IMG/VR virus record: IMGVR_UViG_3300042893_001481
Strand: one strand, 5' to 3'
DNA: 64,000 nucleotides
From: a virus
Position 1 is the first letter of the stretch; the number at the start of each line of letters is the position of its first letter. Position numbers and translations under genes: made by a program. Positions 21,591 through 42,382 of this stretch are shown piece after piece. The notes under the pieces were generated by a model, which saw only the letters and a list, made by a program, of their open reading frames with translations, did no database searches and was not told the origin of the DNA.

Positions 21591-21658
21591 ATCTATTTAT
21601 TTAGTTATTTATTTATAAGTATTTTACTTTATTATAAATTATACTTATTTTATAACAA

Positions 21659-22414
21659 ATGTCAATAGAAAATACAACAACAAAGAAACTTTTAATTACA
21701 AGTGGATGTAGTTTTACAGATCCTTCATTTGCGTGGCCGTACCAATTGGGTAAAAGATACGATTTTAATGTAGAAAACGTCGCATTACCGTCCCAAGGGA
21801 ATGGATTAATCTCAAGAAAATTAATAAGTATATTGGAAAAGTATCCAGTAAATTATCCAGTAAATTATCACTCAGATGACATAATTGTGGGAGTAATGTG
21901 GTCAGGAATGAATAGATATGAGAGAATCATTGAATCGGGTGATGAATATGTAGGTCCACCTTATTTAGAACAAAACCCAACTTGGGGAGTTTACGATGAC
22001 AAAGGAAAAGGAAGGTGGCGAATTATGAGTCACGAATGGATTAAATCGGAAGATTGTTTTATACACTATAAAATATTCAATAATGAGATTTCATCAATGG
22101 TACAAACGTTAGAACACATACTTAGAACACAATGGTATTTAGATATTTGTAATATAAAATACTTTATGTCTTCATTTATGAATATTTTTTCTGATGAAAA
22201 AATTATGAATCAACCAGATGTAAAATATCTATATGAAATGGTTGATTTTTCTAAATTTTTACCGATAGAAGGTTTTTACGAATGGAATCGAGAACATTAT
22301 CCTGTGGATGGTTTTAATGATTTAAAATTAGACTGGCATCCTAATGAGTTTGGTAATGTAAAACTCACTGAAGAAATAATAATTCCCCATTTAATAAAAA
22401 ATAACATAATTTAA
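21659..22414 (+). CDS. SGNH-like protein
   Basis: TSGCSFT, SQGN..I, VMWSG, DWHPN.FG. Confidence 0.7.
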   Translation: MSIENTTTKKLLITSGCSFTDPSFAWPYQLGKRYDFNVENVALPSQGNGLISRKLISILEKYPVNYPVNYHSDDIIVGVMWSGMNRYERIIESGDEYVGPPYLEQNPTWGVYDDKGKGRWRIMSHEWIKSEDCFIHYKIFNNEISSMVQTLEHILRTQWYLDICNIKYFMSSFMNIFSDEKIMNQPDVKYLYEMVDFSKFLPIEGFYEWNREHYPVDGFNDLKLDWHPNEFGNVKLTEEIIIPHLIKNNII

Positions 22415-22416
22415 TA

Positions 22417-23217
22417 ATGAGTGAAAATAAGATTTTTATTGCGGCGGGGGGTGAGTTTGTTAATGACAAAAATAGTTGGCAACATATCTGTAAAGAAAAG
22501 TTAAATTATGAACTTCACGATTTAACAGAAGTAAAAATAAGTAACGCCATAATATCAAGAAAAATAATATATAAAGTCAATGAATTAATTAAAACACATA
22601 AAACAGAAGATATTATTGTTGGAATTGTGTGGACAATACCTATGATACATGAAAGGTATATATCCAATGGTAAAAATGATGATTATATGGGTAAATCTGA
22701 AACGGGGTTTACAAGTGTGGTGGACAATGTAAAAAATTGGAGAATTTTAAATCATGATAGTATTTCATCTTCTGAAGATTGTGAATTATATTTTAAAATT
22801 ATATACAATAAACTGCAATCATATGTTTTAAGTTTGGAACACATATTAAGAACACAATGGTTTTTAAATAAGTTAGGAATTAAGTATTTTATGACATCAT
22901 ATGTAGATATTTTTCATTATGAAAAGAACTTTTTAAAAATGTATGATTTTTCAAAATTAACGGATTATAAAAGAGAATGTTATAGATTAAACATATTAGG
23001 TTATAATGAAGTCACTTACCTACATGGAATGATAGATACAAGACAATTTTTACCCATATATAGTATGTTAGATTGGTTACAGGAAAATTGTGCAGATAAT
23101 GGATTTAAGGATTCTGAAAAATTAATTCCAAATGGTTTTGGACACGAGAAATTTGCAACTGAAGTCATAATTCCATACCTAAAAGAAAAAAACATAATTC
23201 ATAATGAAATTATCTAA
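22417..23217 (+). CDS. Degenerate SGNH-like protein, paralog of 21659-22414
   Basis: Shares LEHILRTQW, but GGEF replaces GCSF and LIPNGFG replaces WHPNEFG. Confidence 0.6.
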   Translation: MSENKIFIAAGGEFVNDKNSWQHICKEKLNYELHDLTEVKISNAIISRKIIYKVNELIKTHKTEDIIVGIVWTIPMIHERYISNGKNDDYMGKSETGFTSVVDNVKNWRILNHDSISSSEDCELYFKIIYNKLQSYVLSLEHILRTQWFLNKLGIKYFMTSYVDIFHYEKNFLKMYDFSKLTDYKRECYRLNILGYNEVTYLHGMIDTRQFLPIYSMLDWLQENCADNGFKDSEKLIPNGFGHEKFATEVIIPYLKEKNIIHNEII

Positions 23218-25248: not shown

Positions 25249-25683
25249 ATGATATATTGGTTTACAGGTCAACCCGGTGCAGGAAAAACTACATTGGCTA
25301 AACATTTAGTCACGTATTTTGAAAATAAAAATGTGATTCACATTGATGGAGATGATTTGCGTGACATCTTTCAAAATAAAGATTACTCAGAATTCGGTAG
25401 AAGAAAAAATATCGAAAGAGCCCAAGATATTGCTCGATTCATGAGTCAAAAAGGATTCAACGTTATTGTTTCGTTGGTGTCACCATACCGCGACCAACGA
25501 GAAGAATTCAAAGAAAATAATCAAGTTAAAGAAATATATGTTCACACGACAGACGAAAGAGGTCGTGAAAATTTTCATGTGACCGATTATGAAACCCCTA
25601 ATAATAATTTCATAGATATTGATACCACCAATAAAAAAGAGGTGGATTCATTCATCGAACTAACAGTTAAATTAGATATATGA
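25249..25683 (+). CDS. cysC: Adenylyl-sulfate kinase
   Basis: WFTGQPGAGKTT, IDGDDLR, R.KNIER, VSLVSPY. Confidence 0.9.
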   Translation: MIYWFTGQPGAGKTTLAKHLVTYFENKNVIHIDGDDLRDIFQNKDYSEFGRRKNIERAQDIARFMSQKGFNVIVSLVSPYRDQREEFKENNQVKEIYVHTTDERGRENFHVTDYETPNNNFIDIDTTNKKEVDSFIELTVKLDI

Positions 25684-26060
25684 GTAAAAAATACGCAATG
25701 TACATCGGAAGATGGCAAAATTGGCACAAAGGACATGAGTGGTTAATCAACCAACAATTAAATCAAGGTAAAAATGTTTGGGTTGCAATTAGAAATGTTG
25801 ACCAAGACGAGAATAATCCTAAAACGGCACAAGAAATTTTAAAGGAATTATCAAATGAACCTTTCTTTACAAATAATTTTGATAAAATTTTATTATCAAT
25901 TATACCCGACATTGAATCGGTAAATTATGGTAGAGGAGTTGGTTATGATGTAATTTACCATGAACCACCTGCAGATGTTGCAGTTATAAGTGGAACGGCC
26001 ATTAGGACTGGTCACATGACACCTGATGGTGAAATTAAATATGACCAAACTAAAGGATAA
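25680..26060 (+). CDS. HxGH nucleotidyltransferase (cytidylyltransferase-like)
   Basis: GRWQNWHKGH, YGRGVGY, ISGTAIR. Confidence 0.75.
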   Translation: MSKKYAMYIGRWQNWHKGHEWLINQQLNQGKNVWVAIRNVDQDENNPKTAQEILKELSNEPFFTNNFDKILLSIIPDIESVNYGRGVGYDVIYHEPPADVAVISGTAIRTGHMTPDGEIKYDQTKG

Positions 26061-26269
26061 TGATAGTAGAACGTAAGAGACACATAGCAAAAACCATCTC
26101 ATATCGTATTGTAAGTACGTTAATTGGTTTCCTATTAATGTGGTTGATAAGTGGATCAATTAAAGTCGGTGCTGCGTTTGGTGTTGCGGAATTGATTTAT
26201 AAACCGATACAATACTATTTTCATGAGAGAATTTGGTATAAATGGATCAAGTACGGACTTAAAAAATAA
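26060..26269 (+). CDS. DUF2061-like small membrane protein
   Basis: RHIAKTISYRI...YYFHERIW. Confidence 0.75.
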   Translation: MIVERKRHIAKTISYRIVSTLIGFLLMWLISGSIKVGAAFGVAELIYKPIQYYFHERIWYKWIKYGLKK

Positions 26270-26274
26270 AATAT

Positions 26275-26838
26275 ATGATTGGTAATATAGATATATTTGA
26301 AAACTTCCTGTCACCTGAAGAGTGTGATTCCATTTTAAATAAATGCAAACAAGAATTAATATTATCAGGTGCGGAGGTATATACTGGTGATTCTAATACC
26401 ATACCTACTAAAAAAAATAGAAAATCATCAGTTGGTTGGATATCCGATTTAGGATTTTTAAATGAGAGATTAACAAATAAATTACGAGAAACTTTCAATA
26501 TAAATGGTATGGAAGTTACGGGATTGGGAGATTACCAATTTACCGAATATAAAGAAGGTGAATATTTTGACTGGCACACCGATAGTACTGATGTTATATA
26601 TAGAGATAGATTTACATCAATAGTAATTCAGTTAAATGACACATACAAAGGTGGTGTATTAGAAATTAAAAATATTAAAGGTGAAATAGTACCAGTAGAA
26701 AATAAAATTGGAACGTTGTATATTTTTAATTCAAGGTTACTTCATAGAGTAGTTCCAGTAATTGAGGGTGTACGTTATTCGTTAGTTAATTGGATATCAT
26801 TGGTTAAAACCGATTTTAAAAAACAAAATTTAATATGA
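26275..26838 (+). CDS. 2OG-Fe(II) oxygenase (prolyl 4-hydroxylase-like)
   Basis: WHTD, GGVL, LHRVVPV..G.RYSLV.W. Confidence 0.9.
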   Translation: MIGNIDIFENFLSPEECDSILNKCKQELILSGAEVYTGDSNTIPTKKNRKSSVGWISDLGFLNERLTNKLRETFNINGMEVTGLGDYQFTEYKEGEYFDWHTDSTDVIYRDRFTSIVIQLNDTYKGGVLEIKNIKGEIVPVENKIGTLYIFNSRLLHRVVPVIEGVRYSLVNWISLVKTDFKKQNLI

Positions 26839-27452
26839 TAAACGGGTACCACATATTTGATGATATAATTCCAGAATTAAATCAAAATAAATTAGAAGAG
26901 TATGTAAAACTTTCAAATTTAAAGTGGAATTATCAACACAATATTACCGGTCAATATGGAGGAACGGAATCATTAAAATTACCTGCAAATGTTTTAAAAG
27001 GTATTGACATTAATGATAATGATATTGTTAATATTATAAATTCAATAAAATTAAACTTATTGAATAAACTTAATGTTGAATTTCTGAGGGATTATAGATG
27101 TAAGATAAATTGGACTGTACCGATAATTGAAAATTATGATTTTAAAAATTTAATACATGTTGACATGGATGTTAATCATATTGCGATTGTTTACTACATA
27201 AATAATTCCGATGGAAATACTATTTTTTTAAACAATAAAAATGGTATTTCATCAGAATCTCGACAAAGTAATTTTATGAATATTAATATGGATGAATTTG
27301 AGATAGTAAATAGTGTACCCCCCAAAAAAGGAAGAGCAGTCATATTCAATGGTAACATTTATCACTATGGTGAATACCCAACTACAACCGATAGATTCGT
27401 AATTAATTTTGATTTAGTTGGTAAAGATAAGAATAAAAATAATTTATTATAA
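26835..27452 (+). CDS. 2OG-Fe(II) oxygenase-like protein
   Basis: HVD, YYIN.SDG.T, PKKGRAVIFNG..YH, R.VINF. Confidence 0.8.
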   Translation: MINGYHIFDDIIPELNQNKLEEYVKLSNLKWNYQHNITGQYGGTESLKLPANVLKGIDINDNDIVNIINSIKLNLLNKLNVEFLRDYRCKINWTVPIIENYDFKNLIHVDMDVNHIAIVYYINNSDGNTIFLNNKNGISSESRQSNFMNINMDEFEIVNSVPPKKGRAVIFNGNIYHYGEYPTTTDRFVINFDLVGKDKNKNNLL

Positions 27453-27916
27453 TGGAAAAACGAGTTACACTTTTTAAAAATTTTTTATCCGTTGAGGAAT
27501 GTGATACTCTTTTAAACACATATAAAAACGAAACATTTGTGGATAGTGAATTTCTAAATAAAAAATTAAAAAATTATTTAGAAAAAATAAAATTTAATGG
27601 AAGTAGTGTAAGTGTAAATGAAATAAAAATTTACAATATATCTACCGAAAATACAAATGCATCATTTTTAGAAGAACCCAAATATGATATTACATTACTA
27701 ATATCATTAAATTCCGATTTTGAAGGTGGAAGATTTATTTTCTTAAACAAAGATATTGATAAAAATATGCATATGGACAATTCACCAGGAGACATGATAG
27801 TTTTCTTTTCAAACATTAATTATGGAAGTGGTAAAATAATCAATGGTACAAAATATTATTTAAAAATTGGCACTAACAATGTTTTAGATTCACAAATAAC
27901 CAAATCACTTATTTAA
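27452..27916 (+). CDS. Degenerate 2OG-Fe(II) oxygenase-fold protein
   Basis: NFLS.EEC, LNSDFEGGRF, GD...F, G.KY are retained, but HxD and the distal His are absent. Confidence 0.6.
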   Translation: MEKRVTLFKNFLSVEECDTLLNTYKNETFVDSEFLNKKLKNYLEKIKFNGSSVSVNEIKIYNISTENTNASFLEEPKYDITLLISLNSDFEGGRFIFLNKDIDKNMHMDNSPGDMIVFFSNINYGSGKIINGTKYYLKIGTNNVLDSQITKSLI

Positions 27917-27921
27917 TTTTT

Positions 27922-28566
27922 ATGGAAAAAGTAATGTACGATACGAAAACATATCTTTACAGAGATATATTAAATCTTTCAGATTTTAAAGATGAGATTT
28001 TAAAAAAGTGTAATGAAATTATAGAAAGTCTACCAAATGTTACTCAAGATGGTTATGGGTATTTTGAAGAAAGTAAAGATTTAAATTTCATAGGTGAAAT
28101 TGAAATTAAAAATAAATTAGATGAAATTTTAAAGTTTGGAATTCAATCATGTATTGATGTGTACCAACTTGAGTATAATTTACCATTTAATAAAATTAGT
28201 ACAGATTGTTGGGTAAATGTGGTTAGAGCTAAAAATCCTGTACAATTTGATGACATTGAAAGTGAATTACATCAATATCATATACACACTGAGATAAATG
28301 AAAAAAATAAAAAATTCATACCACATTTTACGTGGGTGTATTATATTCAAATGCCCGATAATTTAAAAGATGATGATGGTACTTTATATATTAAAGGTGA
28401 AAATGATATTGAATATTTTATTTTACCAAAAGAAGGTGATTTTATAATAATGAAATCAGATTTACCTCACTCACCACAACATGCGTTAGACTCAACAAAA
28501 GATAGAATGGTATTGGCTGGAAATGTTGGATTTGAATTTATTAAAAAACAAAAATCATTGATATAA
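27922..28566 (+). CDS. Putative 2OG-Fe(II) oxygenase
   Basis: WVN, HIH, WVYY, PKEGD, PH, R.VLAGN. Confidence 0.7.
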   Translation: MEKVMYDTKTYLYRDILNLSDFKDEILKKCNEIIESLPNVTQDGYGYFEESKDLNFIGEIEIKNKLDEILKFGIQSCIDVYQLEYNLPFNKISTDCWVNVVRAKNPVQFDDIESELHQYHIHTEINEKNKKFIPHFTWVYYIQMPDNLKDDDGTLYIKGENDIEYFILPKEGDFIIMKSDLPHSPQHALDSTKDRMVLAGNVGFEFIKKQKSLI

Positions 28567-28567
28567 T

Positions 28568-29797
28568 ATGGAATATAGTTTAGATAAAATTGTTATAGTT
28601 GGGGGAGGTACGGCGGGATGGTTATCCGCATTGTACTTAAATAGTAAATTTAAAAATTCAAAAATAACATTAATTGAGAGTGATGAAATTGGAATATTAG
28701 GGGCAGGAGAAGGAACAACTGGCAATATAGTAAAATTTTTAAATAATTTAGGAATTTCGCCTGATGATATGATTAATAACTGTGAGGCAACATTTAAAAC
28801 AGGTATCGATTTTGAAAATTGGACAAAGCCCGGTTCGATATTTACTCACCCAATAGATTATAAACCAAAGGGTGATGGATATGCATATCATTTTAATGCT
28901 AGGTTATTAGTAAAATATCTTAAATCATTAGCAATAGAACGAGGTGTTAATTGGATTGAAGGAATTGTAACTGAACCAATTTTAAATGATACGAATCAAA
29001 TTATTGGACTTAAAACAATTGATACAATGATTGATGCTAGCTTTGTTATTGATTGTAGTGGATTTAAACGATTATTGATTGGTAATCATTATAAATCAAA
29101 TTGGATTTCATATGAAGAACATCTAAAAGTAAATACAGCAATTCCATTTTTTTTACCAACCAATAGTATAAACATCCGTACAACAACCAAATCTATTGCA
29201 ATGAAATATGGATGGATGTGGCAAATCCCATTACAAAGTAGAAGGGGATGTGGGTATATATTCGATTCAACTGAAATTAGTGAGGATGAAGCTAAAAAAG
29301 AAATAATTGAATTCTTAGGTGCCGATGTTGATATTCAGTTTAATAAACCAATTAAATTTAAACCGGGTTCATATGAAAATGTATGGATTGAAAATTGTTT
29401 AGCAATCGGTTTAAGTGGAGGGTTTTTAGAACCATTAGAGGCAACATCAATAATGACTACAATTTTACAATTAGAGGCATTTTATGATACTACTTTAAAA
29501 AAAATGACATTGAAAAAATATAATAAATTTGTAAATACAATCAATACTCAAAATATGATTTTTATTTATTATCATTATTTAACAAATAGAACCGATAGTA
29601 CTTTTTGGAAAAAAGTTTCAGCTGCCGCAGCTGACTTACCATATCCGTTGGATTTATTAATAGATTCATCATATAATTTTAAACCAAAAAAACAATTGGT
29701 CGAATTATTTGAAAAGGACTCAACTATTATATTTGGTTCGTTTTCATATAATAAAATAAATAAAGGTATTAAACAAACCCAACCCCCATTGATATAA
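28568..29797 (+). CDS. Flavin-dependent tryptophan halogenase family protein
   Basis: GGGTAGW, GAGEGT, TFKTGI.F.NW (catalytic Lys region), IDCSGF, GWMWQIP (WxWxIP), GFLEPLEATS. Confidence 0.9.
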   Translation: MEYSLDKIVIVGGGTAGWLSALYLNSKFKNSKITLIESDEIGILGAGEGTTGNIVKFLNNLGISPDDMINNCEATFKTGIDFENWTKPGSIFTHPIDYKPKGDGYAYHFNARLLVKYLKSLAIERGVNWIEGIVTEPILNDTNQIIGLKTIDTMIDASFVIDCSGFKRLLIGNHYKSNWISYEEHLKVNTAIPFFLPTNSINIRTTTKSIAMKYGWMWQIPLQSRRGCGYIFDSTEISEDEAKKEIIEFLGADVDIQFNKPIKFKPGSYENVWIENCLAIGLSGGFLEPLEATSIMTTILQLEAFYDTTLKKMTLKKYNKFVNTINTQNMIFIYYHYLTNRTDSTFWKKVSAAAADLPYPLDLLIDSSYNFKPKKQLVELFEKDSTIIFGSFSYNKINKGIKQTQPPLI

Positions 29798-30526
29798 ATG
29801 TTAATAGAAAACAAATTTTTATTTATTAGTTTACCAAGATGTGCCTCCACATCCTTTTATATTTCCTGTTTAAGAAATGGTTTGGATGTAAAACATGTTG
29901 ACCAAAATTTTGTAAATGGATATAGTAATAGAATTGATTTAAGTTTAGATAATGAATCTCTTGCCGATAGATTGGTACATTTACATGAGACTATATACGA
30001 TTTAAAAAACCATTTTGGGAATGATTATGAGGTAATTACAATAAAAAGAAATAGACATGAAAGATTTATTTCGGTTTGGAAACATTTAATTGATATGATT
30101 TACATGGATTATGGTAAAAAATATGGTGACATATTAAAAGAGTTAAATGAAGAAGATATTTTTTTTTATAAAAATACCGATATTATCAATATTAATGACA
30201 TGTATAAAATGATTGATAAGTTTATAAAAAAAATTGGTTTGAATGAAATATATGATGAATATATACAAAATATGTTTAAAATAACATTTCACCCAACATC
30301 ACATTGGCATAATAATGACTCAAATATAAAATGGTTTGAGTTTGGAAAATTTGATGAATTAGAAGAATGGGTTTCAAATAAAATTGGTAAACCATTTAAA
30401 ATGGAAAAATCAAATGGAAGTCAACATTTCGAGTGCAATTTAAAAATGAATGATAAGTTTGTCACCCATTACAATTCTATTTATGATAGGTATGATATTT
30501 TTAAATCAAACAAAACATTGATATGA
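29798..30526 (+). CDS. Sulfotransferase-like protein
   Basis: FISLPRCASTS (5'-PSB-like), RNRHERFISVW (3'-PB-like). Confidence 0.7.
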   Translation: MLIENKFLFISLPRCASTSFYISCLRNGLDVKHVDQNFVNGYSNRIDLSLDNESLADRLVHLHETIYDLKNHFGNDYEVITIKRNRHERFISVWKHLIDMIYMDYGKKYGDILKELNEEDIFFYKNTDIININDMYKMIDKFIKKIGLNEIYDEYIQNMFKITFHPTSHWHNNDSNIKWFEFGKFDELEEWVSNKIGKPFKMEKSNGSQHFECNLKMNDKFVTHYNSIYDRYDIFKSNKTLI

Positions 30527-30828
30527 TAGATTTTAAAGATATTTATGAATCTTGGAAAAAATCAGGAAACCCCACCGATATTGAAAAGCAACATGCGTTC
30601 GAAAGGTTGTCAATATGTAAGGGTACCACCACCGCACCAAAATGTGAATATTATGTTGAAATTGTTAAGAATAAAAAGTGGTCATCTTTATGTGTAAGTT
30701 GTGGATGTCCCATACCTAAAAAAATATTTACAAATAAAACACCATCCTGTCCAAAAAATAAATGGGACATCATCGACCTTAATTACAACACTAATATTGT
30801 GATAAAAAACAAAAAAACCATTTTATAA
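30523..30828 (+). CDS. Small Cys-rich, probably metal-binding protein
   Basis: RLSIC...C...CVSCGCP...K...CPKNKW. Confidence 0.65.
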   Translation: MIDFKDIYESWKKSGNPTDIEKQHAFERLSICKGTTTAPKCEYYVEIVKNKKWSSLCVSCGCPIPKKIFTNKTPSCPKNKWDIIDLNYNTNIVIKNKKTIL

Positions 30829-30925
30829 CGTATATACATATATATTATAAATAAATTTTTGAAAATGAATATTTATTATTCCCTTTTAAGATATTTATAA
30901 GTATATTTAAAATAAATAAAGATTT

Positions 30926-32428
30926 ATGAAAGCAACAATAATTGGTAGTGATTTACTACAACAAGGTGATTCGGTAAAGATTTTAGAAATAAACACTAAT
31001 ACCACCATATATAACGAAGGGGCTGATTTATTGGATTATGTTGCATTATTTGACATGTTAATCCAAAATAATATTACGGAATTCCACTATATATATACGG
31101 ATTTAGAGGCGTTTTTACCATTAAAATTCCCACATAGATTTGAAGAAATCTTAAAAGAAAAATGTGTTGAAAATGGAATGACATACACACCACATTTAGT
31201 GGCTCAAAATTCTGTAACAGTTCCTTACATTGAGGACGCTGTTAATAAATTTATTCTAAGACAATCTTTTGACACAACCGCTTTGGTGGACGAAACATAT
31301 TGTGCGGATAAGTATGAATTTTTTAATTTAATGAGTGGTTCCACGTTTATTCCAAATACGTACTTTAACACTACCGAATTGTCATTAGATACTTTGTCTG
31401 AATTAAATTTCACAAATGGGTTGGAACCAAACTTAGTAAAAAAACATAGATATCCCTCATATGATGCAAAACAATTACCCGCATTATATTCAATTGAAAA
31501 TCAATTAGATTTTGATACGTTTAAAACAACAATAGATAATACAGAAAATAATTTAATACAGGAATTCATATATGACACACAAAACATTGTTGATGGTAGA
31601 TATTGTGTTATTAGAGGTATCGATATAATATATGGTTCTAATTTAGATGTGATTAATTTAGGTGGGTATAGACAATCTACATTGTTACCATTATCTTTTG
31701 CCACAAATGAATTTAAAACGGACAGTAGAGAATTAAAACAAAAAAGTAGATATAAATATATAACTAAAGCCTTAGGTAAATGGGGTATGGTTGACTATCA
31801 CGTAGAAGACGATAGTAATATTTTAAAATACGATGGATCACTTGCAGACCTTAGTACCATTCAAATTGGTGACTACATGCGTTCAATAGATTTTACCGAT
31901 TATAATGGAAATAAAGCTGGAGAAGCTGATGTTACAAATATGCAAGCATTTGGTTGGGATTGTGATTTAGTACAAGCGAATGCGACATTGACACAATTAA
32001 GTACAACTTTACAAGAAGTTGTCTCCGCCGTTGTTGACACAATTCACATTAGAATTACATTAGATAATGGGTTGAGTTGGGTCGATTCACCTAGTTGTAA
32101 GTACCTTATTGAAGAATCTGGATCAACTGAAACCAGATTTGATAATGTTAATAATTTATATATTGGTGATAAATTAGTGGTTACCGATTCCAACACCAAT
32201 CAATTAACAACGGTAGCAATTACGGGATTGGAAATGGAATATGCTTCTAAAACAATTTATGGTTTAGATTTTGCTCCATCTGATTTGTTCTTAGTTGATG
32301 TTGGAGAAGGATTATATAGTGTAATGCACAACCCGACATGTTGGTGTAGTTATTCATATTGTGGTAATTGGTGTTACGAATCGTGGTGCCCAACTTGTAG
32401 GTGGGGTGGTGGTCCTGCGAAACTTTAA
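30926..32428 (+). CDS. Circularly permuted ATP-grasp + Hint domain + Cys/Trp-rich C-terminal peptide
   Basis: N-terminal GSDLL...ILEINTN, then DKYEF..P.TY, LVKK, LIQEFI. Hint-like aa 292-469 (ILKYDGS...IQIGD.M.S; LYIGDKL; IYGLDF...LFLV; VMHN). Tail PTCWCSYSYCGNWCYESWCPTCRWGGGPAKL. Confidence 0.7.
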   Translation: MKATIIGSDLLQQGDSVKILEINTNTTIYNEGADLLDYVALFDMLIQNNITEFHYIYTDLEAFLPLKFPHRFEEILKEKCVENGMTYTPHLVAQNSVTVPYIEDAVNKFILRQSFDTTALVDETYCADKYEFFNLMSGSTFIPNTYFNTTELSLDTLSELNFTNGLEPNLVKKHRYPSYDAKQLPALYSIENQLDFDTFKTTIDNTENNLIQEFIYDTQNIVDGRYCVIRGIDIIYGSNLDVINLGGYRQSTLLPLSFATNEFKTDSRELKQKSRYKYITKALGKWGMVDYHVEDDSNILKYDGSLADLSTIQIGDYMRSIDFTDYNGNKAGEADVTNMQAFGWDCDLVQANATLTQLSTTLQEVVSAVVDTIHIRITLDNGLSWVDSPSCKYLIEESGSTETRFDNVNNLYIGDKLVVTDSNTNQLTTVAITGLEMEYASKTIYGLDFAPSDLFLVDVGEGLYSVMHNPTCWCSYSYCGNWCYESWCPTCRWGGGPAKL

Positions 32429-32455
32429 AATAAAACAAATTAAATAAAAAATAAC

Positions 32456-32596
32456 ATGGCAAAGAAAGAAAGAGTAGAAAGACCGTTACAAACAATAAAA
32501 ACGAACATAACCCCAATTACAACCGATTTAAAAGTTAAAGTGGCAAATGCCTTCCAATCATTTGTAACGGCAATCAAAGTAAAACACCTTTCATAG
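32456..32596 (+). CDS. 46-aa hypothetical protein
   Basis: Manual translation MAKKERVERPLQTIKTNITPITTDLKVKVANAFQSFVTAIKVKHLS; A-rich leader; fills the gap. Confidence 0.65.
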   Translation: MAKKERVERPLQTIKTNITPITTDLKVKVANAFQSFVTAIKVKHLS

Positions 32597-32604
32597 TATG
32601 TATT

Positions 32605-33426
32605 ATGAAATTAGTTACATTTGGGGATAGTTGGACTGAAGGGGTTGGGGGCAATATTAGTGAGGAATCGGCAACAGATATACCTGAAGAAAAAACAAAC
32701 ATAAGACAAAAATATTGTTGGCCAAAACACTTATCGGAATTACTCACTTGTGAAGTTAAAAATGTTGGGGTCGGATCATTTTCTAACAACTCCATATTCA
32801 ATTCAATTTCTCGTCAATTAAAAAATGGAATCATCACTCAAGATGATTTCGTTGTTATTATGTGGTCATCATCTTTACGGGATTCATTACCTTTTTTCCC
32901 TACTGAAGATGATTTTTTTATTTGGGGTAAACGATATAAAAGTAAAGAACACCTTTTAAAGTATATTTTTGATGGAGTTAATAGTGATAATATAAACTAT
33001 AATAGGGCAGAAAAAAACTTTAGAGATTATTACATTAATAATTTATTTAGTGATACCTACTACGATATAGTAAATCAAAATTACATATTACATCTTCAAT
33101 TTATGTTTAAAGAATTAGGTATTAGATACCTTTTTTGTGATGGATTTGATATAATGATTAATAAAAATATTGATACGTTAGTTGACAAATCCCATTTAAT
33201 TGAGAGTAATAGATATTGGGGTTATAGAGATAAAACTATGGCAAATTTATTAATTAATACTAATAGAAAAGATGTGTGGCAAGATAATAACCATTGGGTT
33301 GATACCACAGCAGGTAAACACCCAAGTAGTAATGGATATAAATTGATTGCTGAGGAATTATATAAATTTATAAATGAGGGTAATTTATTAGTACCCATCA
33401 AACTAAAAAATTCAAATCTATTATGA
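32605..33426 (+). CDS. SGNH-like protein
   Basis: TFGDSWTEG, GSFSN..I, IMWS, KHPS..GY.LIA. Confidence 0.75.
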   Translation: MKLVTFGDSWTEGVGGNISEESATDIPEEKTNIRQKYCWPKHLSELLTCEVKNVGVGSFSNNSIFNSISRQLKNGIITQDDFVVIMWSSSLRDSLPFFPTEDDFFIWGKRYKSKEHLLKYIFDGVNSDNINYNRAEKNFRDYYINNLFSDTYYDIVNQNYILHLQFMFKELGIRYLFCDGFDIMINKNIDTLVDKSHLIESNRYWGYRDKTMANLLINTNRKDVWQDNNHWVDTTAGKHPSSNGYKLIAEELYKFINEGNLLVPIKLKNSNLL

Positions 33427-33989
33427 ATTATACCATAAATAGTAATTTTTGTAATAGTGAAACTGCTAAAGATATCATTGAGTTCTGTATTAAATTTGGT
33501 GAACCGTTTTCATACAACCCGTCAGAACGATGGGATTGTAGACGAATATATGATTCTGATTTTAAAAAGAGAATAATTGATTTATTAATAACCAATTATA
33601 AAAACGGATATTTTAAATTATGGTTTGATTACTCTACCTTTAATTTAAAGAATTTTAATATCAGTCTAACTTCATATTATGATGGTAGATATCTCAATTT
33701 GCATAAAGATAAATCAAGTGAATTAACGACCGTGATTGTCCTTTCAGATAACTTTGAAGGTGGTCAGTTTGCTTTATGTGGTGATAAAAATCCACCTATT
33801 AATTTTGAAACCCTTGAAGGTATAAGTACATTTGACTTAAAATTGGGTGATTTAATTTCATTTAATGGTTCCGAAACCTATCACGGAGTGTTACCGGTAA
33901 CAAATGGAACGAGGTATGCCTTGAATATTTGGATGACAGAAACTGATTTTGATTACCCTAAATTAAAATCTAATAAAACTGTTATATAA
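33423..33989 (+). CDS. 2OG-Fe(II) oxygenase
   Basis: LHKD, FEGG, YHGVLPV..G.RYAL.IW. Confidence 0.85.
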   Translation: MNYTINSNFCNSETAKDIIEFCIKFGEPFSYNPSERWDCRRIYDSDFKKRIIDLLITNYKNGYFKLWFDYSTFNLKNFNISLTSYYDGRYLNLHKDKSSELTTVIVLSDNFEGGQFALCGDKNPPINFETLEGISTFDLKLGDLISFNGSETYHGVLPVTNGTRYALNIWMTETDFDYPKLKSNKTVI

Positions 33990-34023
33990 TGTTAACTAAA
34001 AAAAATAATACAAATAAACTAAT

Positions 34024-34542
34024 ATGAAACTATCAATCGATGATTTAGTTTTTTTAAAATCTGAATTAAATAACACTCGAATAATGAATGAAGAAGATTT
34101 AAGCTATATAAAATCAGCACATCCCCAATTATATCATACCACAAATCCAGAAAAAGCCGATATTCTATCTCTCTTTCCAAATGATAGTTGGGTTTATACT
34201 TTAGAAAATAAAAATTTAAATGAATTTATTTGTAATAAATTTGAAGAACCCATTGATAATTTATACATAATGCATAGATTAATATATGGTGAAAATGGTT
34301 ATGCTAAAAAACATAAAGATAGATTTACAACACATAAGACCGTTAGTATTTTATTGTCATCCGATTTTACAGGTGGTGAAATGTATATAAATGATAAAGA
34401 TCTATCATTGACAAATGAAGGAGATTATATTGTATTCAATGGGGGTAATGAATCCCACGAAGTAAAAAAGATAATTAATGGGGAACGAGATGTATTAATA
34501 ATATGGTTTTCAAAAAAGAAAGCAGAATTTAGTATCATATGA
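34024..34542 (+). CDS. 2OG-Fe(II) oxygenase
   Basis: KHKD, FTGGE, HEV..I..G.R.VLIIW. Confidence 0.85.
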   Translation: MKLSIDDLVFLKSELNNTRIMNEEDLSYIKSAHPQLYHTTNPEKADILSLFPNDSWVYTLENKNLNEFICNKFEEPIDNLYIMHRLIYGENGYAKKHKDRFTTHKTVSILLSSDFTGGEMYINDKDLSLTNEGDYIVFNGGNESHEVKKIINGERDVLIIWFSKKKAEFSII

Positions 34543-35018
34543 AAATATTAATAATAGCATTACCCAGAACCGGCTCAACTTCTCTTTTAAAAAAAATATC
34601 TAAAGATAGAAATCTAAAACCATTCTTTGAACCATTTGATGGGACTGGTAGAGTTATCTATAACAATGAAGATAATTCGGTTGTTAAAACAATTATATCA
34701 CACTACCAAAATAATTTAGAACTTATTAATAACTTTGATGAAATTATACTTCTTAATAGAAAAAATATAAAAGAGTTAATAGAATCTCACTCATATCAAA
34801 CGTATTTTTTAAAAACAGGTTATAATTCTAATAATCCATATGTCTATAAAGAACCACCACAAGAAATAATAAATTTGTGTACGTCTGATATACTAAATTG
34901 GAATGAGGAAATCAACCAGCTTTCAAAAATTACTAAAATACCAATTACATACTATGAAGATATTTTTGATAATAATTCAGCGGATAGGTTACGAATGTCA
35001 ATAACTAATATAATTTAA
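34539..35018 (+). CDS. Sulfotransferase-like P-loop protein
   Basis: IALPRTGSTSL, FEPF, L.RKN, YYED. Confidence 0.7.
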   Translation: MKILIIALPRTGSTSLLKKISKDRNLKPFFEPFDGTGRVIYNNEDNSVVKTIISHYQNNLELINNFDEIILLNRKNIKELIESHSYQTYFLKTGYNSNNPYVYKEPPQEIINLCTSDILNWNEEINQLSKITKIPITYYEDIFDNNSADRLRMSITNII

Positions 35019-36064
35019 TGATAGATTTAAAACAATATACGTGTAGTAATCCATTTACCACTTTAGAAATACATGATAATGTTGGGTTTGTTTGTTGTCC
35101 ATCTTGGTTACCAAATAAAATAGAACTTAATGATACATCTTTAAAAAATGTATATAATAGTGAACCGGTTGTGGATATTAGAAATTCCATTTTAGATGGT
35201 TCATTTAAATATTGTAACAAAGAATTATGTCCACATTTAAGTAGATTGTTAAACTATGGTGTCACCTCTGGCCCTATTCACTTAAAATCAAATTCAAAAT
35301 ATACAACACCAATTATTGAACCAACCACACCGACCACAATTTTAATGAATTTTGATAGGACCTGCAATTATAAATGTCCATCGTGTAGAGTCGACTTAAT
35401 TGTTGAAAGTAGTAAAGGTATAGAACGAATAGAAAAAACAATAGACGAGATTGATACCTATTATTCGGCAAACGTAAAAACTTTATACATTACTGGTACT
35501 GGAGATCCCTTTGTTTCAGTTAGTTTTAGAAATTATTTAAGAAACTTTAATCCAAAAAAATACCCAAAATTAACAAGTATACATTTTCATACAAATGCAT
35601 CAATGTGGACAAAGGAAATGTGGGACAGTATGCCAAATGTTCATAAGTATGTAACAACGTGTGAGATATCAATAGATGCAGGAACACAAAACACCTATGA
35701 AAATAAAACCAGATTAGGTGGTAAGTGGGATACCTTAATAAATAATTTAAAATTTATTTCTACAATAGAAACATTGAAATCAGTAAAAACATCGTTTGTT
35801 GTTCAAGATAGTAACTATATGGAAATGGAAACCTTTTATAATTTAATGTATTCTATTTTTGGAAAAAAGGTAAATGTGTTTTTTGGTAAAATAGTTAATT
35901 GGGGTACATTCTCAGATGGTGAATTTAAATTAAAACAGGTTTGGGATACCAATCACCCTGAGCATGAGTTATTTAAAAAAGAATTTAATAGGATATGGAA
36001 AAACACTAATCTATTTCATAATTTATATGAATTTGTCGACACCACACAAAAAACTTTAATATAA
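35018..36064 (+). CDS. Radical SAM protein with N-terminal SPASM/twitch-like domain
   Basis: C..PF...CCPSW...C....CP N-terminal region; CNYKCPSC; GTGDPF; ISIDA. Confidence 0.9.
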   Translation: MIDLKQYTCSNPFTTLEIHDNVGFVCCPSWLPNKIELNDTSLKNVYNSEPVVDIRNSILDGSFKYCNKELCPHLSRLLNYGVTSGPIHLKSNSKYTTPIIEPTTPTTILMNFDRTCNYKCPSCRVDLIVESSKGIERIEKTIDEIDTYYSANVKTLYITGTGDPFVSVSFRNYLRNFNPKKYPKLTSIHFHTNASMWTKEMWDSMPNVHKYVTTCEISIDAGTQNTYENKTRLGGKWDTLINNLKFISTIETLKSVKTSFVVQDSNYMEMETFYNLMYSIFGKKVNVFFGKIVNWGTFSDGEFKLKQVWDTNHPEHELFKKEFNRIWKNTNLFHNLYEFVDTTQKTLI

Positions 36065-36750
36065 TGTCCAATATAAGAAGTGTGGGATTTATTGAAAAAC
36101 ATTTTGATGAACATTCAGAATTTATTATAAGTAAAATAAATGAATCATCAATATCTTTAAGTAGAATATCAAATAAAGATTTAAATGAATTAATTTATCC
36201 GATTGTACATTTAATTGATTTTGAATTCAACGGAGATTCTAAATTTTTATTGAATAAAACAATAGATGAAATGGATTTGATGTATTCAAATTGGTATAAG
36301 TTGCACGAAAAAATGTTTACAACATTTAATTATGTGGAAAAAAATAATATAATTTTAGACTATAGAAAAAATGGAGTTGGGTATTATTGGGTTGATTTAA
36401 ATTGTTATTATAGTTATGAAATGTTATTTAGATTACATAACTGTGGTAGAGTCAACTCCCATCAAAATCTTTTGGAACTTAGAGAATATGATATAAATGG
36501 ATACAACTATAGTAGGGTTGTTGTTGTCATATGTAACAATGGATTTATAAATCAAATTAAAGGAGATTATAATCTGAAACCTGATTTTATTTATAAAGAT
36601 TATATATATGATTTATTTTTAAATTATAAAGAATTAAAGGGATTTAAAATATTAACTCCAAATAATAATAATTTTACCCATATGGATTTAAATGATACAG
36701 AGTTATCTAATTTAAAAAGAACACGTCCAGAATTCTTTTTCCTAATATAA
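36064..36750 (+). CDS. Hypothetical protein
   Basis: 228-aa ORF coupled to the previous gene (TAATG); contains HNCGR and QIKG..N.KP. Confidence 0.6.
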   Translation: MSNIRSVGFIEKHFDEHSEFIISKINESSISLSRISNKDLNELIYPIVHLIDFEFNGDSKFLLNKTIDEMDLMYSNWYKLHEKMFTTFNYVEKNNIILDYRKNGVGYYWVDLNCYYSYEMLFRLHNCGRVNSHQNLLELREYDINGYNYSRVVVVICNNGFINQIKGDYNLKPDFIYKDYIYDLFLNYKELKGFKILTPNNNNFTHMDLNDTELSNLKRTRPEFFFLI

Positions 36751-36762: not shown

Positions 36763-36794
36763 TTTGATATTTTCGTGGATTTTCTCTATATTAT
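36763..36794 (+). promoter_or_regulatory. Bacteroidota-type sigma70-like promoter
   Basis: TTTG (36763)-N20-TATATTAT (36787), ATG at 36800. Confidence 0.5.
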
Positions 36795-36799
36795 CTATA

Positions 36800-39520
36800 A
36801 TGAAAATCTTAGCACACGCCCCCTTTATTGGTACTACTGGTTATGCCAATCATGCACGTTCATTCTTCACGGCACTTAACAAATACCACCAAGTTAAAGT
36901 TAGAAATTTAACCGTTGGGGGTAGTTGGTCAGGTTATAACAACACCCCACATGACGGGGAATCCTACATTACGGATGAGATGAAGGAAATGTTACACCAA
37001 CAAACACTAATTAATGGGGATAACTCAAGAACCGATTATCCAATTTACGGACACGACCCCAACTTTATACCCGATGTTCACATTGTATTGATGGAGAATA
37101 ACAGTCATTACTATTATGACAATTACGAGGGTTATAAAATCGCATATTGTGTTTGGGAGTCAACAAGATTTAGTGATGGTTTCTTTAAAAGATTACTCAC
37201 GTTTGATGAGATGTGGGTACCATCACAATGGCAGTATGATTGTATTGTGGAACAAGGTTATCCCAAAGAAAAAGTCTTTATAGTACCCGAAGGGGTTGAT
37301 GTTGATACCTTTAAACCTACAAACAAAACAATAAAAACAAAGAAGACTAAATTTGTATTGTTTGGTAGATGGGAATGGAGAAAAGGGACTACCGAAATTT
37401 TACAAGCATTCTCAGAAGAATTTAAAGATACTGACAATGTTGAATTAATCGCTTCGGTTGAAAATCCATATCCTTCGGACGGCTTAAAAACAACTGAGGA
37501 AAGAATTAAACATTATGGTATTGACACTAAGAAGATTAAGTTCATAAATTTTCCATCAAGAGATGAATATGTTAGATATCTACAAGAAGCTAACGTGTTT
37601 GTTTCGTGTGCAAGAAGTGAGGGTTGGAACTTACCATTAATAGAAGCTATGGCTTGTGGTACACCCTCCATATACTCAAATTGGGGTGGACAATTACAAT
37701 TTACATCAGATGGTGGTCTACCCGTGGATATTAAAGGTTTAACACCCGCAAATCACGAACACAAAGACTTTCCAGGTGATTACTGTGAACCCGATTGGGA
37801 AAATTTAAAATCTCAATTAAGAAATGCTTACGAGAATAGTAAACAACATAAAGTTTTGGCTCTAACCGAATCTAAAACCATTCATGAAAATTTTAATTGG
37901 GACACTATAGCTAAAGGTGCTACTGATATATTAGAAAGAACCAATGAACATTTTGCATTTGTAACCACAGGTAATTTACAATATATGCCGGTCATTGAAA
38001 AATTAGTTCAATCATTGTTACAATTCTCAAGACATAAAATTATAGTGTATGGTGTTGATTGTGAAGTACCATTTGATTATCCAAACGTGATTAAAAAAAC
38101 AATTAACCCACCAAAAATATCTGAACATGATAAGTGGTATTGGAAACAACATGCATGTTTAGAATCATTGGATTATGGTTTTGATAACTATGTGTGGATT
38201 GATGGTGATGTAGTTGTGAATCATAATGTTGATAATGTAAAAGAATATTTCTCACAATTAACAACATACCCAATTCCCGACATTCATGTTCAAACGGAAT
38301 TTTTTGGAACCTACAATGATGGTAAGGACTCACAACTATTCAATGAACAATTAGCTAACGAATGGAAAATTACTAAAAGAAATCCTTATGCACATATTTG
38401 TTTCTACATTTATAATTCAAATTGTCATAAATGGTTTACGGAAATTCTTGAACATTACACAAAAGTAATTGAGAATAATCCTAAAGATTATAAACGTCTA
38501 TATCTCTGGAATGATGAGGGTATCGATAACGCAATGAGATGGAAATATGGATGTGATAAGTTCTTACCACTATCAAACTTTGACACATCGGGTTATGATG
38601 GTGACTTAGGTAACACTAATGAAATGTTACATCACTTTTATAAGTTTTGGAATGAAGAAGGTCCACAAAATTTCAATAGGATATTTGGTTATCAATTCAT
38701 ACCAAAAGATAAATCTAAAATCATTTATTTTCATGGTAATAAACATGCTGAAATATCTGACAAGATGATTGAATTCATTACAATGATGAAAAACAATTCA
38801 TTTTATAAATCAGAACAATTCTACACCGATGTTTACAAAGTTGAAAATTTAGGAGACATTAAAGATGTTCAAGGAGGTACGATTGAAATAGCAAACAAGT
38901 ATGGTTGGTTCAGAGCCATTTATCACGAAATATTTAATCTGTTAGATTATTATAAGGACAGACAAAAAACAATCAATGAAGGAGATGTGGTTGTTGATTT
39001 AGGTGGTAATGTTGGAATATTCAACAGATGGGCATATAGTCAAGGTGCTAGTAAAGTAATTTCATTTGAACCTGATAAACGATACTTCAAATTACTATCA
39101 TTAAATGCCGACCCACGTTCCATATTGTTTAATGCCGCAATGGCCGATACCATTGATGAATTTATATTGTATCAATCAGAACACTTAGGTGGATCAACAT
39201 TACTCGGTTCAGGTGATAGTGTGAATTATCCCGTTAGAACATATACTTTAAACTATCTTTTTGAAACTGGTTTAGTTGACAAGATTGATTTTCTTAAAGT
39301 TGATATTGAGGGTGCCGAACTACATGCTTTTGCTGGTATATCGGATGATAATTTAATGAAAGTTAAAAACATTGCAATGGAATATCACCACGGTCAATTG
39401 AACTACAATGAAGAACTAAGGCAAGGATTAATAGATAGAATGAATGGATTGGGGTTCCAATCATATCTTTTATTTATGGGTGGAAATAACAAATTACAAA
39501 TGATATATTTTACAAGATGA
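36800..39520 (+). CDS. Multidomain glycosyltransferase (GT4 + GT-A-like) fused to an FkbM-type methyltransferase
   Basis: GRWEWRKG, SEGWNLPLIEAMACG (GT4); WIDGD (DxD); VDLGGNVG, FEP, LKVDIEGAE (FkbM). ATG at 36800 preferred over the TTG at 36764. Confidence 0.85.
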   Translation: MKILAHAPFIGTTGYANHARSFFTALNKYHQVKVRNLTVGGSWSGYNNTPHDGESYITDEMKEMLHQQTLINGDNSRTDYPIYGHDPNFIPDVHIVLMENNSHYYYDNYEGYKIAYCVWESTRFSDGFFKRLLTFDEMWVPSQWQYDCIVEQGYPKEKVFIVPEGVDVDTFKPTNKTIKTKKTKFVLFGRWEWRKGTTEILQAFSEEFKDTDNVELIASVENPYPSDGLKTTEERIKHYGIDTKKIKFINFPSRDEYVRYLQEANVFVSCARSEGWNLPLIEAMACGTPSIYSNWGGQLQFTSDGGLPVDIKGLTPANHEHKDFPGDYCEPDWENLKSQLRNAYENSKQHKVLALTESKTIHENFNWDTIAKGATDILERTNEHFAFVTTGNLQYMPVIEKLVQSLLQFSRHKIIVYGVDCEVPFDYPNVIKKTINPPKISEHDKWYWKQHACLESLDYGFDNYVWIDGDVVVNHNVDNVKEYFSQLTTYPIPDIHVQTEFFGTYNDGKDSQLFNEQLANEWKITKRNPYAHICFYIYNSNCHKWFTEILEHYTKVIENNPKDYKRLYLWNDEGIDNAMRWKYGCDKFLPLSNFDTSGYDGDLGNTNEMLHHFYKFWNEEGPQNFNRIFGYQFIPKDKSKIIYFHGNKHAEISDKMIEFITMMKNNSFYKSEQFYTDVYKVENLGDIKDVQGGTIEIANKYGWFRAIYHEIFNLLDYYKDRQKTINEGDVVVDLGGNVGIFNRWAYSQGASKVISFEPDKRYFKLLSLNADPRSILFNAAMADTIDEFILYQSEHLGGSTLLGSGDSVNYPVRTYTLNYLFETGLVDKIDFLKVDIEGAELHAFAGISDDNLMKVKNIAMEYHHGQLNYNEELRQGLIDRMNGLGFQSYLLFMGGNNKLQMIYFTR

Positions 39521-40176
39521 GTACATTAAACAAAATAGCACAAAGTTATGGAACTGATAAAAGTTCCGATTGTCACAATTATTGTGATAAATACTCTAAT
39601 TATCTTCCATTCAAAAGATATGATAAACTAAACATCATGGAGATTGGTGTATTAGACGGACAATCTGTAAAAACATGGAAAGAATATTTCTATCGTTCCA
39701 ATATATTAGGTATCGATATTAACCCTGATTGTAAGAAGTATGAGGAATCAGGTATATCAGTTGAGATAGGTTCACAAGCTGACGGTAACTTCCTATCAAG
39801 AATTTGGCAACAATACGGACCATTTGACATGATATTAGATGATGGTTCACATATGAATAGTCACGTGATATTTTCATTTGAACATTTATTTCAATCTGTA
39901 AAATCGGGTGGTATATATATTGTTGAAGATTGTGCAACATCATATTGGAGTCATTGGGAAGGTGGTTATCTTAAAGAAACAACAATGATGGAATATTTTA
40001 AAAGATTAACCGATGATGTAAATTTTAGAGGGGTAATGAATCTCGATAAACCAAATGTTCATGCAAGAAGAGAAGATTGGTGTACGGAAACATTATTAAA
40101 AGAACAATCAGATTGTAGAACGGACATTGAATCCATAACATTCCTTAATGGAATAATATTAATTAGAAAACGTTAA
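39517..40176 (+). CDS. Class I SAM O-methyltransferase (sugar O-methyltransferase-like)
   Basis: YGTDK, MEIGV..G.S, GSQAD, FDMILDDGSH, GGIYIVED. Confidence 0.85.
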   Translation: MSTLNKIAQSYGTDKSSDCHNYCDKYSNYLPFKRYDKLNIMEIGVLDGQSVKTWKEYFYRSNILGIDINPDCKKYEESGISVEIGSQADGNFLSRIWQQYGPFDMILDDGSHMNSHVIFSFEHLFQSVKSGGIYIVEDCATSYWSHWEGGYLKETTMMEYFKRLTDDVNFRGVMNLDKPNVHARREDWCTETLLKEQSDCRTDIESITFLNGIILIRKR

Positions 40177-40186
40177 AATATAATAC

Positions 40187-42322: not shown

Positions 42323-42382
42323 ATTTCTTTGTCCCAAATAAAAATATTGAAGTATTTATTGTTGTATAATACAATATAAGAT

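Follow-up and report, generated by a model that had tools for sequence, protein, structure and literature searches.

A predicted self-cleaving ATP-grasp-Hint protein with a cysteine-rich C-terminal peptide in an island of tagged enzymes of T4-like phages

In inteins and type-A bacterial intein-like (BIL) domains, C-terminal cleavage is performed by His(G:6) and Asn(G:7) through cyclisation of the asparagine; in type-A BILs the cleavage products dominate over splicing, and a nucleophile at the +1 position is not required (PMC4031507). Enzymes of the GspS/YgiC/Cp1B class couple a carboxylate to an amine, and YgiC and YjfC have been described as peptidylpolyamine synthetases (PMC12568646). Here, we report an analysis of the viral record IMGVR_UViG_3300042893_001481 (IMG/VR), a stretch of 64,000 nucleotides referred to below as the window, and of one gene within it whose product, P0001, joins a predicted ligase of this class, a predicted Hint domain and a short cysteine-rich tail. 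An original prediction made from the letters alone had proposed at this position a self-releasing precursor resembling those of ribosomally synthesised and post-translationally modified peptides (RiPPs); the open reading frame (ORF), the end of its sequence and the position of the tail were found exactly as claimed. In our reading, to which we assign a probability of roughly one half on the grounds of sequence comparison and a structural model, P0001 would be an active ligase that cuts itself, frees a six-cysteine peptide and stands at the centre of an island of enzymes sharing a C-terminal tag. The gene and its parts are as follows.

30926-32428, + strand: ligase-Hint-peptide gene (P0001, 500 aa), whose ORF translation ends in VMHN followed by PTCWCSYSYCGNWCYESWCPTCRWGGGPAKL
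30926-31780, + strand: residues 1-285, predicted ATP-grasp amide ligase domain of the GspS/YgiC/glutathione-synthetase type (AlphaFold model and structure search)
31799-32332, + strand: residues 292-469, predicted Hint domain (fold at about 289-470 in the AlphaFold model)
32333-32425, + strand: residues 470-500, the 31-aa tail, with the cysteine pattern C-x-C-x4-C-x3-C-x4-C-x2-C

The tail contains six Cys, four Trp and one Lys (K499), has a Gly-rich end, terminates in -KL and has a mass of 3566 Da in the reduced form. The richness first claimed for Cys, Trp and Tyr stands for Cys (6/31 in the tail vs 5/469 in the body, binomial p 9e-7) and Trp (4/31 vs 3/469, p 5e-5) and not for Tyr, whose three tail residues are no enrichment over the body (p 0.26). 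P0001 gave no significant match in Pfam, PHROGs, NCBIfam or PDB sequence searches. Its relatives are about 600 close sequences and 268 cluster representatives, the latter from an exhaustive search with a lowest identity of 24%, and almost all are about 490-520 aa or longer. A deep alignment (A2) of 81 diverse sequences with identity down to 22% was used for AlphaFold modelling and for the residue conservation given below. The resulting model has a predicted local distance difference test (pLDDT) score of 87.3 and a predicted template modelling (pTM) score of 0.81, and only residues 472-500 are unstructured in it (tail pLDDT ∼33). A first model from 25 close relatives, with a pLDDT of 46, was discarded.

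The ATP-grasp proposed for the N-terminal part was recovered in the model with fold matches of Z 7.8-9.9. In the structure search (VIA), the matches were YgiC (7uka; Z 9.9 over 202 aa), GspS (2io7; 9.2) and Cp1B (9cjn; 7.8), with glutathione synthetases at Z 7-9, and residues 1-282 align to YgiC 94-378. The ATP-grasp order is circularly permuted relative to RimK, whose structure aligns only from residue 49. The sole profile trace for P0001 was likewise to the RimK ATP-grasp (E 0.27), and since it is the end of that profile (positions 142-168) which matches residues 1-27, it argues for membership of the permuted class. The putative ligase site is nearly invariant in A2, with D9 and K173 kept in 80/81 sequences and E21, N23, R112, D122 and R230 in 81/81. 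As modelled, residues 1-285 are an ATP-grasp ligase with a conserved Asp...Glu-x-Asn Mg/ATP site and phosphate-binding Lys/Arg residues. The equivalent Glu-x-Asn pair of Cp1B is located at the ATP site and is required for activity (PMC12568646), and this role, together with the near-invariance of the Mg/ATP site, is indicative that the predicted ligase domain is probably active in catalysis. With regard to graspetide ligases, the fold matches listed are of the GspS class, a list whose lack of the MdnB/MdnC family does not speak against that family; in the tail itself there is a single Glu and a single Lys, and no acid-hydroxyl motif recurs.

The Hint domain placed at residues 292-469 is borne out by fold matches of Z ∼15. 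The highest scores (VIA) were obtained with Tetrahymena BIL2 (6tmm; 15.2), NpuDnaB (15.0, root-mean-square deviation 2.0 Å over 139 aa), the Clostridium thermocellum BIL (2lwy; 14.8) and Hedgehog (14.5), and more than 20 inteins, BILs and Hedgehog structures matched at Z 12-15 with deviations of 1.9-2.6 Å over 126-151 residues (Foldseek E 2e-7); no match of P0001 to PF07591 or to any Hint-type Pfam model was found up to E 1. Residue 292 of the model superposes on intein residue 1 and residue 469 on the terminal Asn. The catalytic positions of inteins are unevenly kept. At position 292, the block A nucleophile is replaced by His in P0001, and the five commonest residues in A2 (His 34, Lys 17, Ile 6, Leu 4 and Phe 3, together 64/81) do not include Cys, Ser or Thr. 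The Thr-x-x-His of block B is lacking as well (T378 in 46/81; Asp in 38 and Asn in 24 at the +3 position). The terminal His-Asn of block G is present, H468 in 77/81 and N469 in 80/81 sequences, so that the cleavage motif first pointed out stands as the only catalytic part retained. With no nucleophile and no block-B His, yet with His-Asn kept, only the C-terminal half-reaction would be left to this domain. By the criterion of a type-A BIL, P0001 has the His-Asn and lacks Cys1. Behind the Hint there is just the 31-aa tail, and the +1 residue is Pro in P0001 and Ser, Thr, Gly, Ala, Pro or others in relatives. The original prediction had cautioned that this Pro might block the cut; Pro is frequent at +1 across the family and is therefore tolerated. 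Asn-Pro bonds readily undergo succinimide-mediated cleavage. The Hint columns are as conserved as those of the ligase (identity 0.77 vs 0.74). From the conserved residues and the architectures of the relatives we infer cleavage at Asn469, and self-release of the Cys peptide from P0001 appears likely.

Those architectures were counted over 114 classified relatives, 66 of which have a Cys-rich tail of 13-90 residues behind the His-Asn. In five sandwich relatives (P0122, P0124, P0127, P0130 and P0134), the Cys peptide lies between the first Hint and a second, canonical Hint beginning with Cys1; the Gly-rich end of the peptide directly precedes this Cys1, and the second Hint ends in His-Asn and is followed by K, KK or KL only. 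Two more relatives carry a long Cys-rich stretch and then a Peptidase_S74 self-cleaving module (P0155 above and P0150 below the Pfam cut-off), others have one or two canonical Hints and nearly no peptide, and some have just 5-7 residues behind the His-Asn. The extra Hints match PT-HINT (PF07591), Intein_splicing and Hint above cut-off. With the sandwich and S74 forms, a payload enclosed by self-cutting modules is a recurrent arrangement. Conceivably, the K-containing stub after Hint 2 reflects an insertion that removes itself in the manner described for BILs (PMC4031507) and restores the usual end.

The tails themselves follow a few rules. Every one of the 65 Cys-rich tails has an even number of Cys. 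Body composition would lead one to expect 15.2 tails with a single Lys and 7.8 with none, whereas 45 have exactly one and no tail lacks it; in 39 the last Lys lies within three residues of the C-terminus. The hypervariable tail considered at the outset was not borne out: its sequence and length do vary freely across the whole family, but in the close clade (25 sequences, 58-93% identity) the six Cys, their spacing, G480, His468 and Asn469 show no variation. Conservation of the tail columns other than Cys (0.57) is below that of the body (0.74-0.77). His468 is lost in 3/7 tail-less and in 1/74 Cys-tailed members (Fisher p 0.0016), a pattern which fits the retention of His-Asn for payload release.

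The gene lies inside a run of enzyme genes whose products share their last residues, which we examined by synteny over 80 loci.

26275-36750, + strand: tagged co-oriented gene run, products ending in [STNK]-[LIV]-[LIV]-COOH, mostly after Lys

The tag is present on 13 of the 14 large consecutive products of this run (five 2-oxoglutarate (2OG)-type proteins, o154, a Trp halogenase, o242, o101, an SGNH-like protein, o159, a radical SAM protein and o228), and the Hint protein is the sole exception among ORFs of at least 60 aa; a 46-aa ORF discussed below is also untagged. Across the loci, the tag was counted in 94/94 2OGa, 65/67 2OGc, 57/57 2OGd, 48/48 halogenase, 81/81 o242, 73/76 o101, 60/65 SGNH, 56/56 o159 and 23/24 radical SAM products. 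Free of it are carbamoyltransferase, APS (adenosine 5'-phosphosulfate) kinase (0/33), o126 (0/39), a fusion of glycosyltransferase 4 (GT4) and methyltransferase, methyltransferase and fibre proteins, and GT9 proteins carry it in 1/4. In a complete 287-kb relative, 15/27 island ORFs are tagged vs 18/258 elsewhere (Fisher p 2e-9). An origin of the tag as a nucleotide or coupling artefact was ruled out by the synonymous Leu/Ile codons, the alternation of L/I/V/M and the presence of the tag on non-overlapping genes. As the one large untagged member of a tagged island, the Hint protein is the best candidate for a docking hub and may be the partner bound by the tag. That a dozen enzyme families have this ending in common suggests a mode of assembly for modification pathways that has yet to be described. 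Upstream of the core, the tag also occurs on ORFs at 5841-6653, 9685-10677 (-), 15148-17853 (-) and 21659-23217, some on the opposite strand, and the tagged set may be larger than the co-oriented run.

Put together, the steps of the self-cutting ligase could run as follows. Asn469 would cyclise onto its own backbone carbonyl and cut the Asn469-Pro470 bond once, freeing a 3.57 kDa peptide with six Cys, one Lys and a new alpha-amine, which may then pair its Cys into three disulfides or bind a metal. Ligases of this class activate a carboxylate, frequently that of a peptide C-terminus, as an acyl-phosphate for joining to an amine, and the one amide bond formed here could involve the C-terminal carboxylate of the peptide, its single Lys or its new N-terminus, with the 46-aa ORF product, a polyamine or the peptide itself as candidate partners. 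The untagged protein would serve as the hub to which about a dozen tagged enzyme families dock, possibly giving a modified peptide. If the self-cut at Asn469 is true, this would be a natural single-turnover, protease-free release of a disulfide-rich peptide from an enzyme that possibly acts on it. The original notion of a Hint replacing the leader peptidase is thereby kept in part, as the 470-aa 'leader' appears to be itself an active ligase and not only a stand-in for a peptidase.

Several observations weigh against this account. In the model, the tail is neither structured nor docked on the ligase, the ATP-grasp Z of 8-10 is moderate and no sequence profile is significant. The block-B His is missing, and position 453, often His in inteins, is mostly Asp in an alignment made by eye. 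Many inteins cyclise Asn slowly unless a branched intermediate has formed (PMC4031507); the Hint of P0001 cannot form one. Four of the seven members with tails of 5-7 residues retain the His-Asn, which argues that release of a Cys peptide is not its sole role. Loci without such a tail retain the tagged enzymes, and halogenase presence shows no relation to the number of tail Trp (36 vs 8 loci, p 0.5). The last two observations imply that the tagged enzymes need not act on the Cys tail, and they bring the neighbouring genes into the argument.

25249-25683, + strand: APS kinase, above the Pfam cut-off, untagged
25680-26060, + strand: o126, a 126-aa HxGH-type nucleotidyltransferase, untagged
29798-30526, + strand: o242, sulfotransferase-like, with an N-terminal ...LPRCASTS... 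loop, tagged (-KTLI), in 75/80 loci
30523-30828, + strand: o101, 101 aa, tagged, in 74/80 loci and always just upstream of the ligase-Hint-peptide gene
30846-30853, + strand: TATAAATA, candidate T4 late-promoter consensus, with the start codon 73 nt downstream
32456-32596, + strand: 46-aa ORF ending ...IKVKHLS, Lys-rich, without Cys or Trp

The conserved co-oriented order is APS kinase, o126, 2OG, (halogenase), 2OG, o242, o101, the ligase-Hint-peptide gene, (SGNH), 2OG, o159, (radical SAM). The co-occurrence of the gene with halogenase, 2OG, radical SAM and sulfotransferase-like genes, predicted at the outset, is conserved in the 80 loci. The individual assignments fared unevenly. The Trp halogenase (E 4e-93), the APS kinase and the SGNH-like neighbour, with a GDS block at its N-terminus, hold as named. 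Six 2OG-Fe proteins had been counted; five ORFs match PF13640 (2OG-Fe(II)), of which 26275-26838 and 33423-33989 reach the curated cut-off clearly and 34024-34542 marginally, while 26835-27452 and 27922-28566 are sub-threshold. The radical SAM protein has its CxxxCxxC motif (aa 116-123) and a twitch-type profile match which is only sub-threshold. For the two supposed sulfotransferases, o242 and o159, the likeness consists of language-model look-alikes and a PAPS-loop-like motif only (PAPS, 3'-phosphoadenosine 5'-phosphosulfate); the nearest Atlas clusters of o242 carry Sulfotransfer_2, which is a lead only, and neither o242 nor o101 has a match in Pfam, NCBIfam or PDB profile searches. o101 has six conserved Cys (CxxC...CxxCxC...C in most relatives) and is zinc-ribbon-like by motif only. 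The APS kinase and the HxGH nucleotidyltransferase are a probable PAPS supply. The promoter-like TATAAATA sits in a 97-nt gap, the only sizeable one of the gene run, and in 17/77 loci the exact late-promoter 8-mer lies no more than 150 nt ahead of the gene, vs 11/1096 control ORFs.

The 46-aa ORF, missed by an ORF list starting at 60 aa and, like the tag, no part of the original prediction, lies 11-63 nt behind the gene in 74/79 loci and has 292 called homologs of 45-49 aa. In its alignment (A5), K41, K43 and H44 are invariant, within a K-x-K-H-L motif close to the C-terminus, and E8-R9-P10 is conserved; the product has no Trp and no Tyr. It supports the strongest of the rival explanations, in which the tagged enzymes would modify the 46-aa product or some other protein, the ligase-Hint part would act as hub or ligase and the Cys tail would be accessory (carrier, anchor or ligation partner), self-cleavage being compatible with all of this. 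We regard this explanation as doubtful, and nonetheless as the competitor that survives best. More widespread than the Cys tail, the 46-aa ORF is found also beside relatives of 26-50% identity, and its invariant Lys/His and conserved Pro/Arg are typical targets of 2OG oxygenases and SET proteins. Three loci without a Cys peptide keep the whole tailoring set, with the tagged enzymes and the small ORF, so that these enzymes need not act on the tail as originally assumed: L100 (tail KPKQPKK), L102 (tail AKQLW), which has a halogenase and an o242-like gene, and L103 (three Hints), which has radical SAM, sulfotransferase-like, 2OG and SET genes; tagged SGNH genes are also among those kept in this group. 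The lack of a halogenase/Trp relation for the Cys tail points the same way. The 46-aa product, however, contains neither a Trp for a halogenase of the Trp type nor a Tyr for a sulfotransferase acting on Tyr, its strong conservation sets it apart from most RiPP cores, and the distant locus L099 is without it. Considering both sides, we judge it an equally good or better candidate substrate than the tail, though it lacks Trp and Tyr, and the RiPP reading as a whole is partly supported. Small ORFs behind distant Hint genes were considered as separate Cys-rich precursors and ruled out, as they are Cys-free. In three cases, which are anecdotal, a Hint protein tail of 5-7 residues (L100, L102 and L101) accompanies a small ORF ending in ...AHS or ...KNA. 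Distant islands contain tagged SET-domain proteins of the protein-lysine methyltransferase type (L100 10159-10536; L103 5325-5708, with a weak Pfam match), and L100 has, at 12916-13173, an untagged 85-aa biotin/lipoyl-carrier-like protein. The SET and biotin/lipoyl-like proteins are hints of Lys residues as modification sites.

A more elaborate form of the self-cutting ligase, which seems unlikely to hold in full, makes P0001 the hub of a tag-addressed peptide factory. The docked enzymes would modify the Cys peptide while it is still tethered, the 46-aa product, or both; the ligase would then link the pieces through an amide bond or, after exposure of the peptide's amine by the Hint, close the peptide head-to-tail, and Asn cyclisation would release the product. 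If true, recognition would reside on the enzymes, with an enzyme as the precursor, and the leader-peptide logic of known RiPP pathways would be inverted.

Rather unlikely, in our estimate, is the absence of any self-cleavage, with the Hint as a fixed structural or regulatory module and the tail as a permanent metal-binding or disulfide domain of a ligase acting on other substrates. A Hint without N-terminal nucleophile and block-B His is in keeping with such a role, as are the coupling of Asn cyclisation mostly to earlier splicing steps (PMC4031507), Cys numbers of 8 or 12, which also fit four-Cys metal sites, and the retention of His-Asn in some members with almost no tail. However, His468 and Asn469 persist at 22-25% identity, in contrast to the remaining catalytic positions of the Hint, which have drifted, the His is lost preferentially where the payload is missing, and relatives flank the same peptide by a second active-looking Hint or an S74 module; moreover, six Cys are not divisible into four-Cys sites and the tail is not packed on the body in the model.

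Conjugation is a still fainter prospect. The peptide would be a tag whose C-terminus is linked covalently to an amine of some target, be it a protein of the virion or host, a polyamine or the 46-aa product. In short forms the ATP-grasp acyl-phosphate would provide the activation, and in sandwich forms a Hint 2 thioester, as in the ciliate BIL-ubiquitin-like-BIL (BUBL) loci. The best structural match of the Hint is indeed BIL2 of the Tetrahymena BUBL locus, the Gly-rich peptide of the sandwich relatives ends directly before Cys1 of Hint 2, the peptidylpolyamine synthetases YgiC/YjfC belong to the matched class, and the gene is often near fibre genes and has the late-promoter-like motif. Nevertheless, the sandwich forms retain the ATP-grasp, so the two activations are not alternatives, the K, KK or KL after Hint 2 suits a self-removing BIL-type insertion, and no conjugation target is known. 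A decayed intein or selfish Hint remnant without present function is highly improbable, for while Hint domains are mobile and extra Hints are clearly inserted in some relatives, the Hint of all relatives has the same position, no homing endonuclease, conservation equal to that of the ligase and a His-Asn under selection.

The carrier is supported to be a large uncultured T4-like phage. IMG/VR holds 120 relatives of P0001, and three of the contigs (237-316 kb, rated 95-100% complete) have a T4 gp23-type capsid gene (E 1e-64 to 1e-78), the nearest cultured capsids being those of Flavobacterium phage immuto and Microcystis phage Mel-JY01 at ∼54% identity. Within the window no hallmark gene was found, and the phage origin, as originally proposed, is therefore supported through these relatives. 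A giant-virus origin, considered because the best IMG/VR match is labelled GVMAG, was rejected, as the complete relatives carry T4 gp23 and show no match to the capsid of nucleocytoplasmic large DNA viruses; the profile of the latter matched nowhere, which makes that half of the exclusion weak. The match in question, IMGVR_UViG_GVMAG-M-3300009164-63_000001, which at 85% identity and with the gene order unchanged is the closest relative, comes from a bin carrying the label of a giant-virus metagenome-assembled genome; given the T4-like complete relatives, its 10-kb contig was probably mis-binned. No relative of P0001 was found in 185,579 prokaryote species genomes, and P0001, the locus, o101 and a tagged 2OG gene gave no tblastn/megablast match in 50,697 phage records. 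In aquatic metagenomes the system is abundant, hundreds of variants being present in large T4-like phages without a cultured member. In the 316-kb relative, the gp23-type match at 20840-22315 falls in two pieces inside one 576-aa frame, which suggests an insertion of ∼100 residues in the capsid protein.

Further genes of the window lie around the island. Downstream, the region 36764-44179 (+) encodes a GT4 and FkbM methyltransferase fusion of 918 aa, another methyltransferase, a GT9-like protein of 711 aa and, as a fibre, a collagen-repeat protein of 598 aa that ends in Peptidase_S74. All are untagged, in what looks like a separate fibre-glycosylation module. An untagged 69-aa ORF (26060-26269, +; ending ...GLKK) follows the PAPS-supply genes and precedes the first of the tagged oxygenases, and a 71-aa homolog of it in the distant locus L098 is annotated as DUF2061. 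Outside the core island, the regions 1079-2470, 10680-11816 (-), 5841-9158 and 20001-20762 (-) contain more radical-SAM-like and at least five SGNH/GDSL-like genes (N-terminal GDSF/GCSF).

The layout of ligase, Hint and Cys peptide in a phage was not found described in the papers searched, which were sought for ATP-grasp and Hint in phages and for BUBL-type loci, in accordance with the novelty first claimed. To our knowledge, BILs have not been described in fusion with an ATP-grasp ligase or with a Cys peptide of 30 aa, or from such a phage operon. If the activity is real it is possibly widespread among phages, with a product that might serve as toxin, signal, virion decoration or effector on the host, and it should interest peptide natural-product, intein and phage biologists as well as protein engineers, for whom the sandwich relatives would be natural two-intein release cassettes.

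Among known systems, the type-A BILs (2lwy and 6tmm) resemble the Hint of P0001 in fold (Z 14.8-15.2) and in the C-terminal His-Asn. BILs, however, start with Cys and make an N-terminal thioester, whereas the Hint of P0001 and its relatives has His, Lys or a hydrophobic residue at position 1 and no block-B His; it would thus be like the C-terminal half-reaction of a type-A BIL, yet not a member by the Cys1 criterion. In BUBL-type loci, a payload is flanked by two Hints, as in the relatives P0122, P0127 and P0130. The Pretoxin-HINT (PF07591) of polymorphic toxins similarly precedes a variable C-terminal payload that is thought to be released, but there the payload is a toxin domain and the N-terminus a secretion or filament part, in contrast to the 31-aa Cys peptide and the ligase of P0001. 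GspS, Escherichia coli YgiC/YjfC, eukaryotic glutathione synthetase and Cp1B share with the predicted ligase the fold, the permuted topology (Z 7.8-9.9) and the D...E-x-N site; however, about 90 residues at the start of YgiC have no counterpart in P0001, which carries a Hint and a peptide in addition and has no significant sequence similarity to the class. Lastly, RiPP pathways (e.g., sulfated RaxX and radical-SAM-modified Cys-rich peptides) are alike in setting a ribosomal Cys-rich peptide amid halogenase, 2OG, radical SAM and sulfotransferase-like genes with a PAPS supply. Here, the part of the 'leader' would instead fall to an enzyme of 469 aa that is cut off by its own Hint, tailoring genes are kept where the Cys peptide is missing, and recognition seemingly proceeds via a tag on the enzymes and not via a leader on the substrate.

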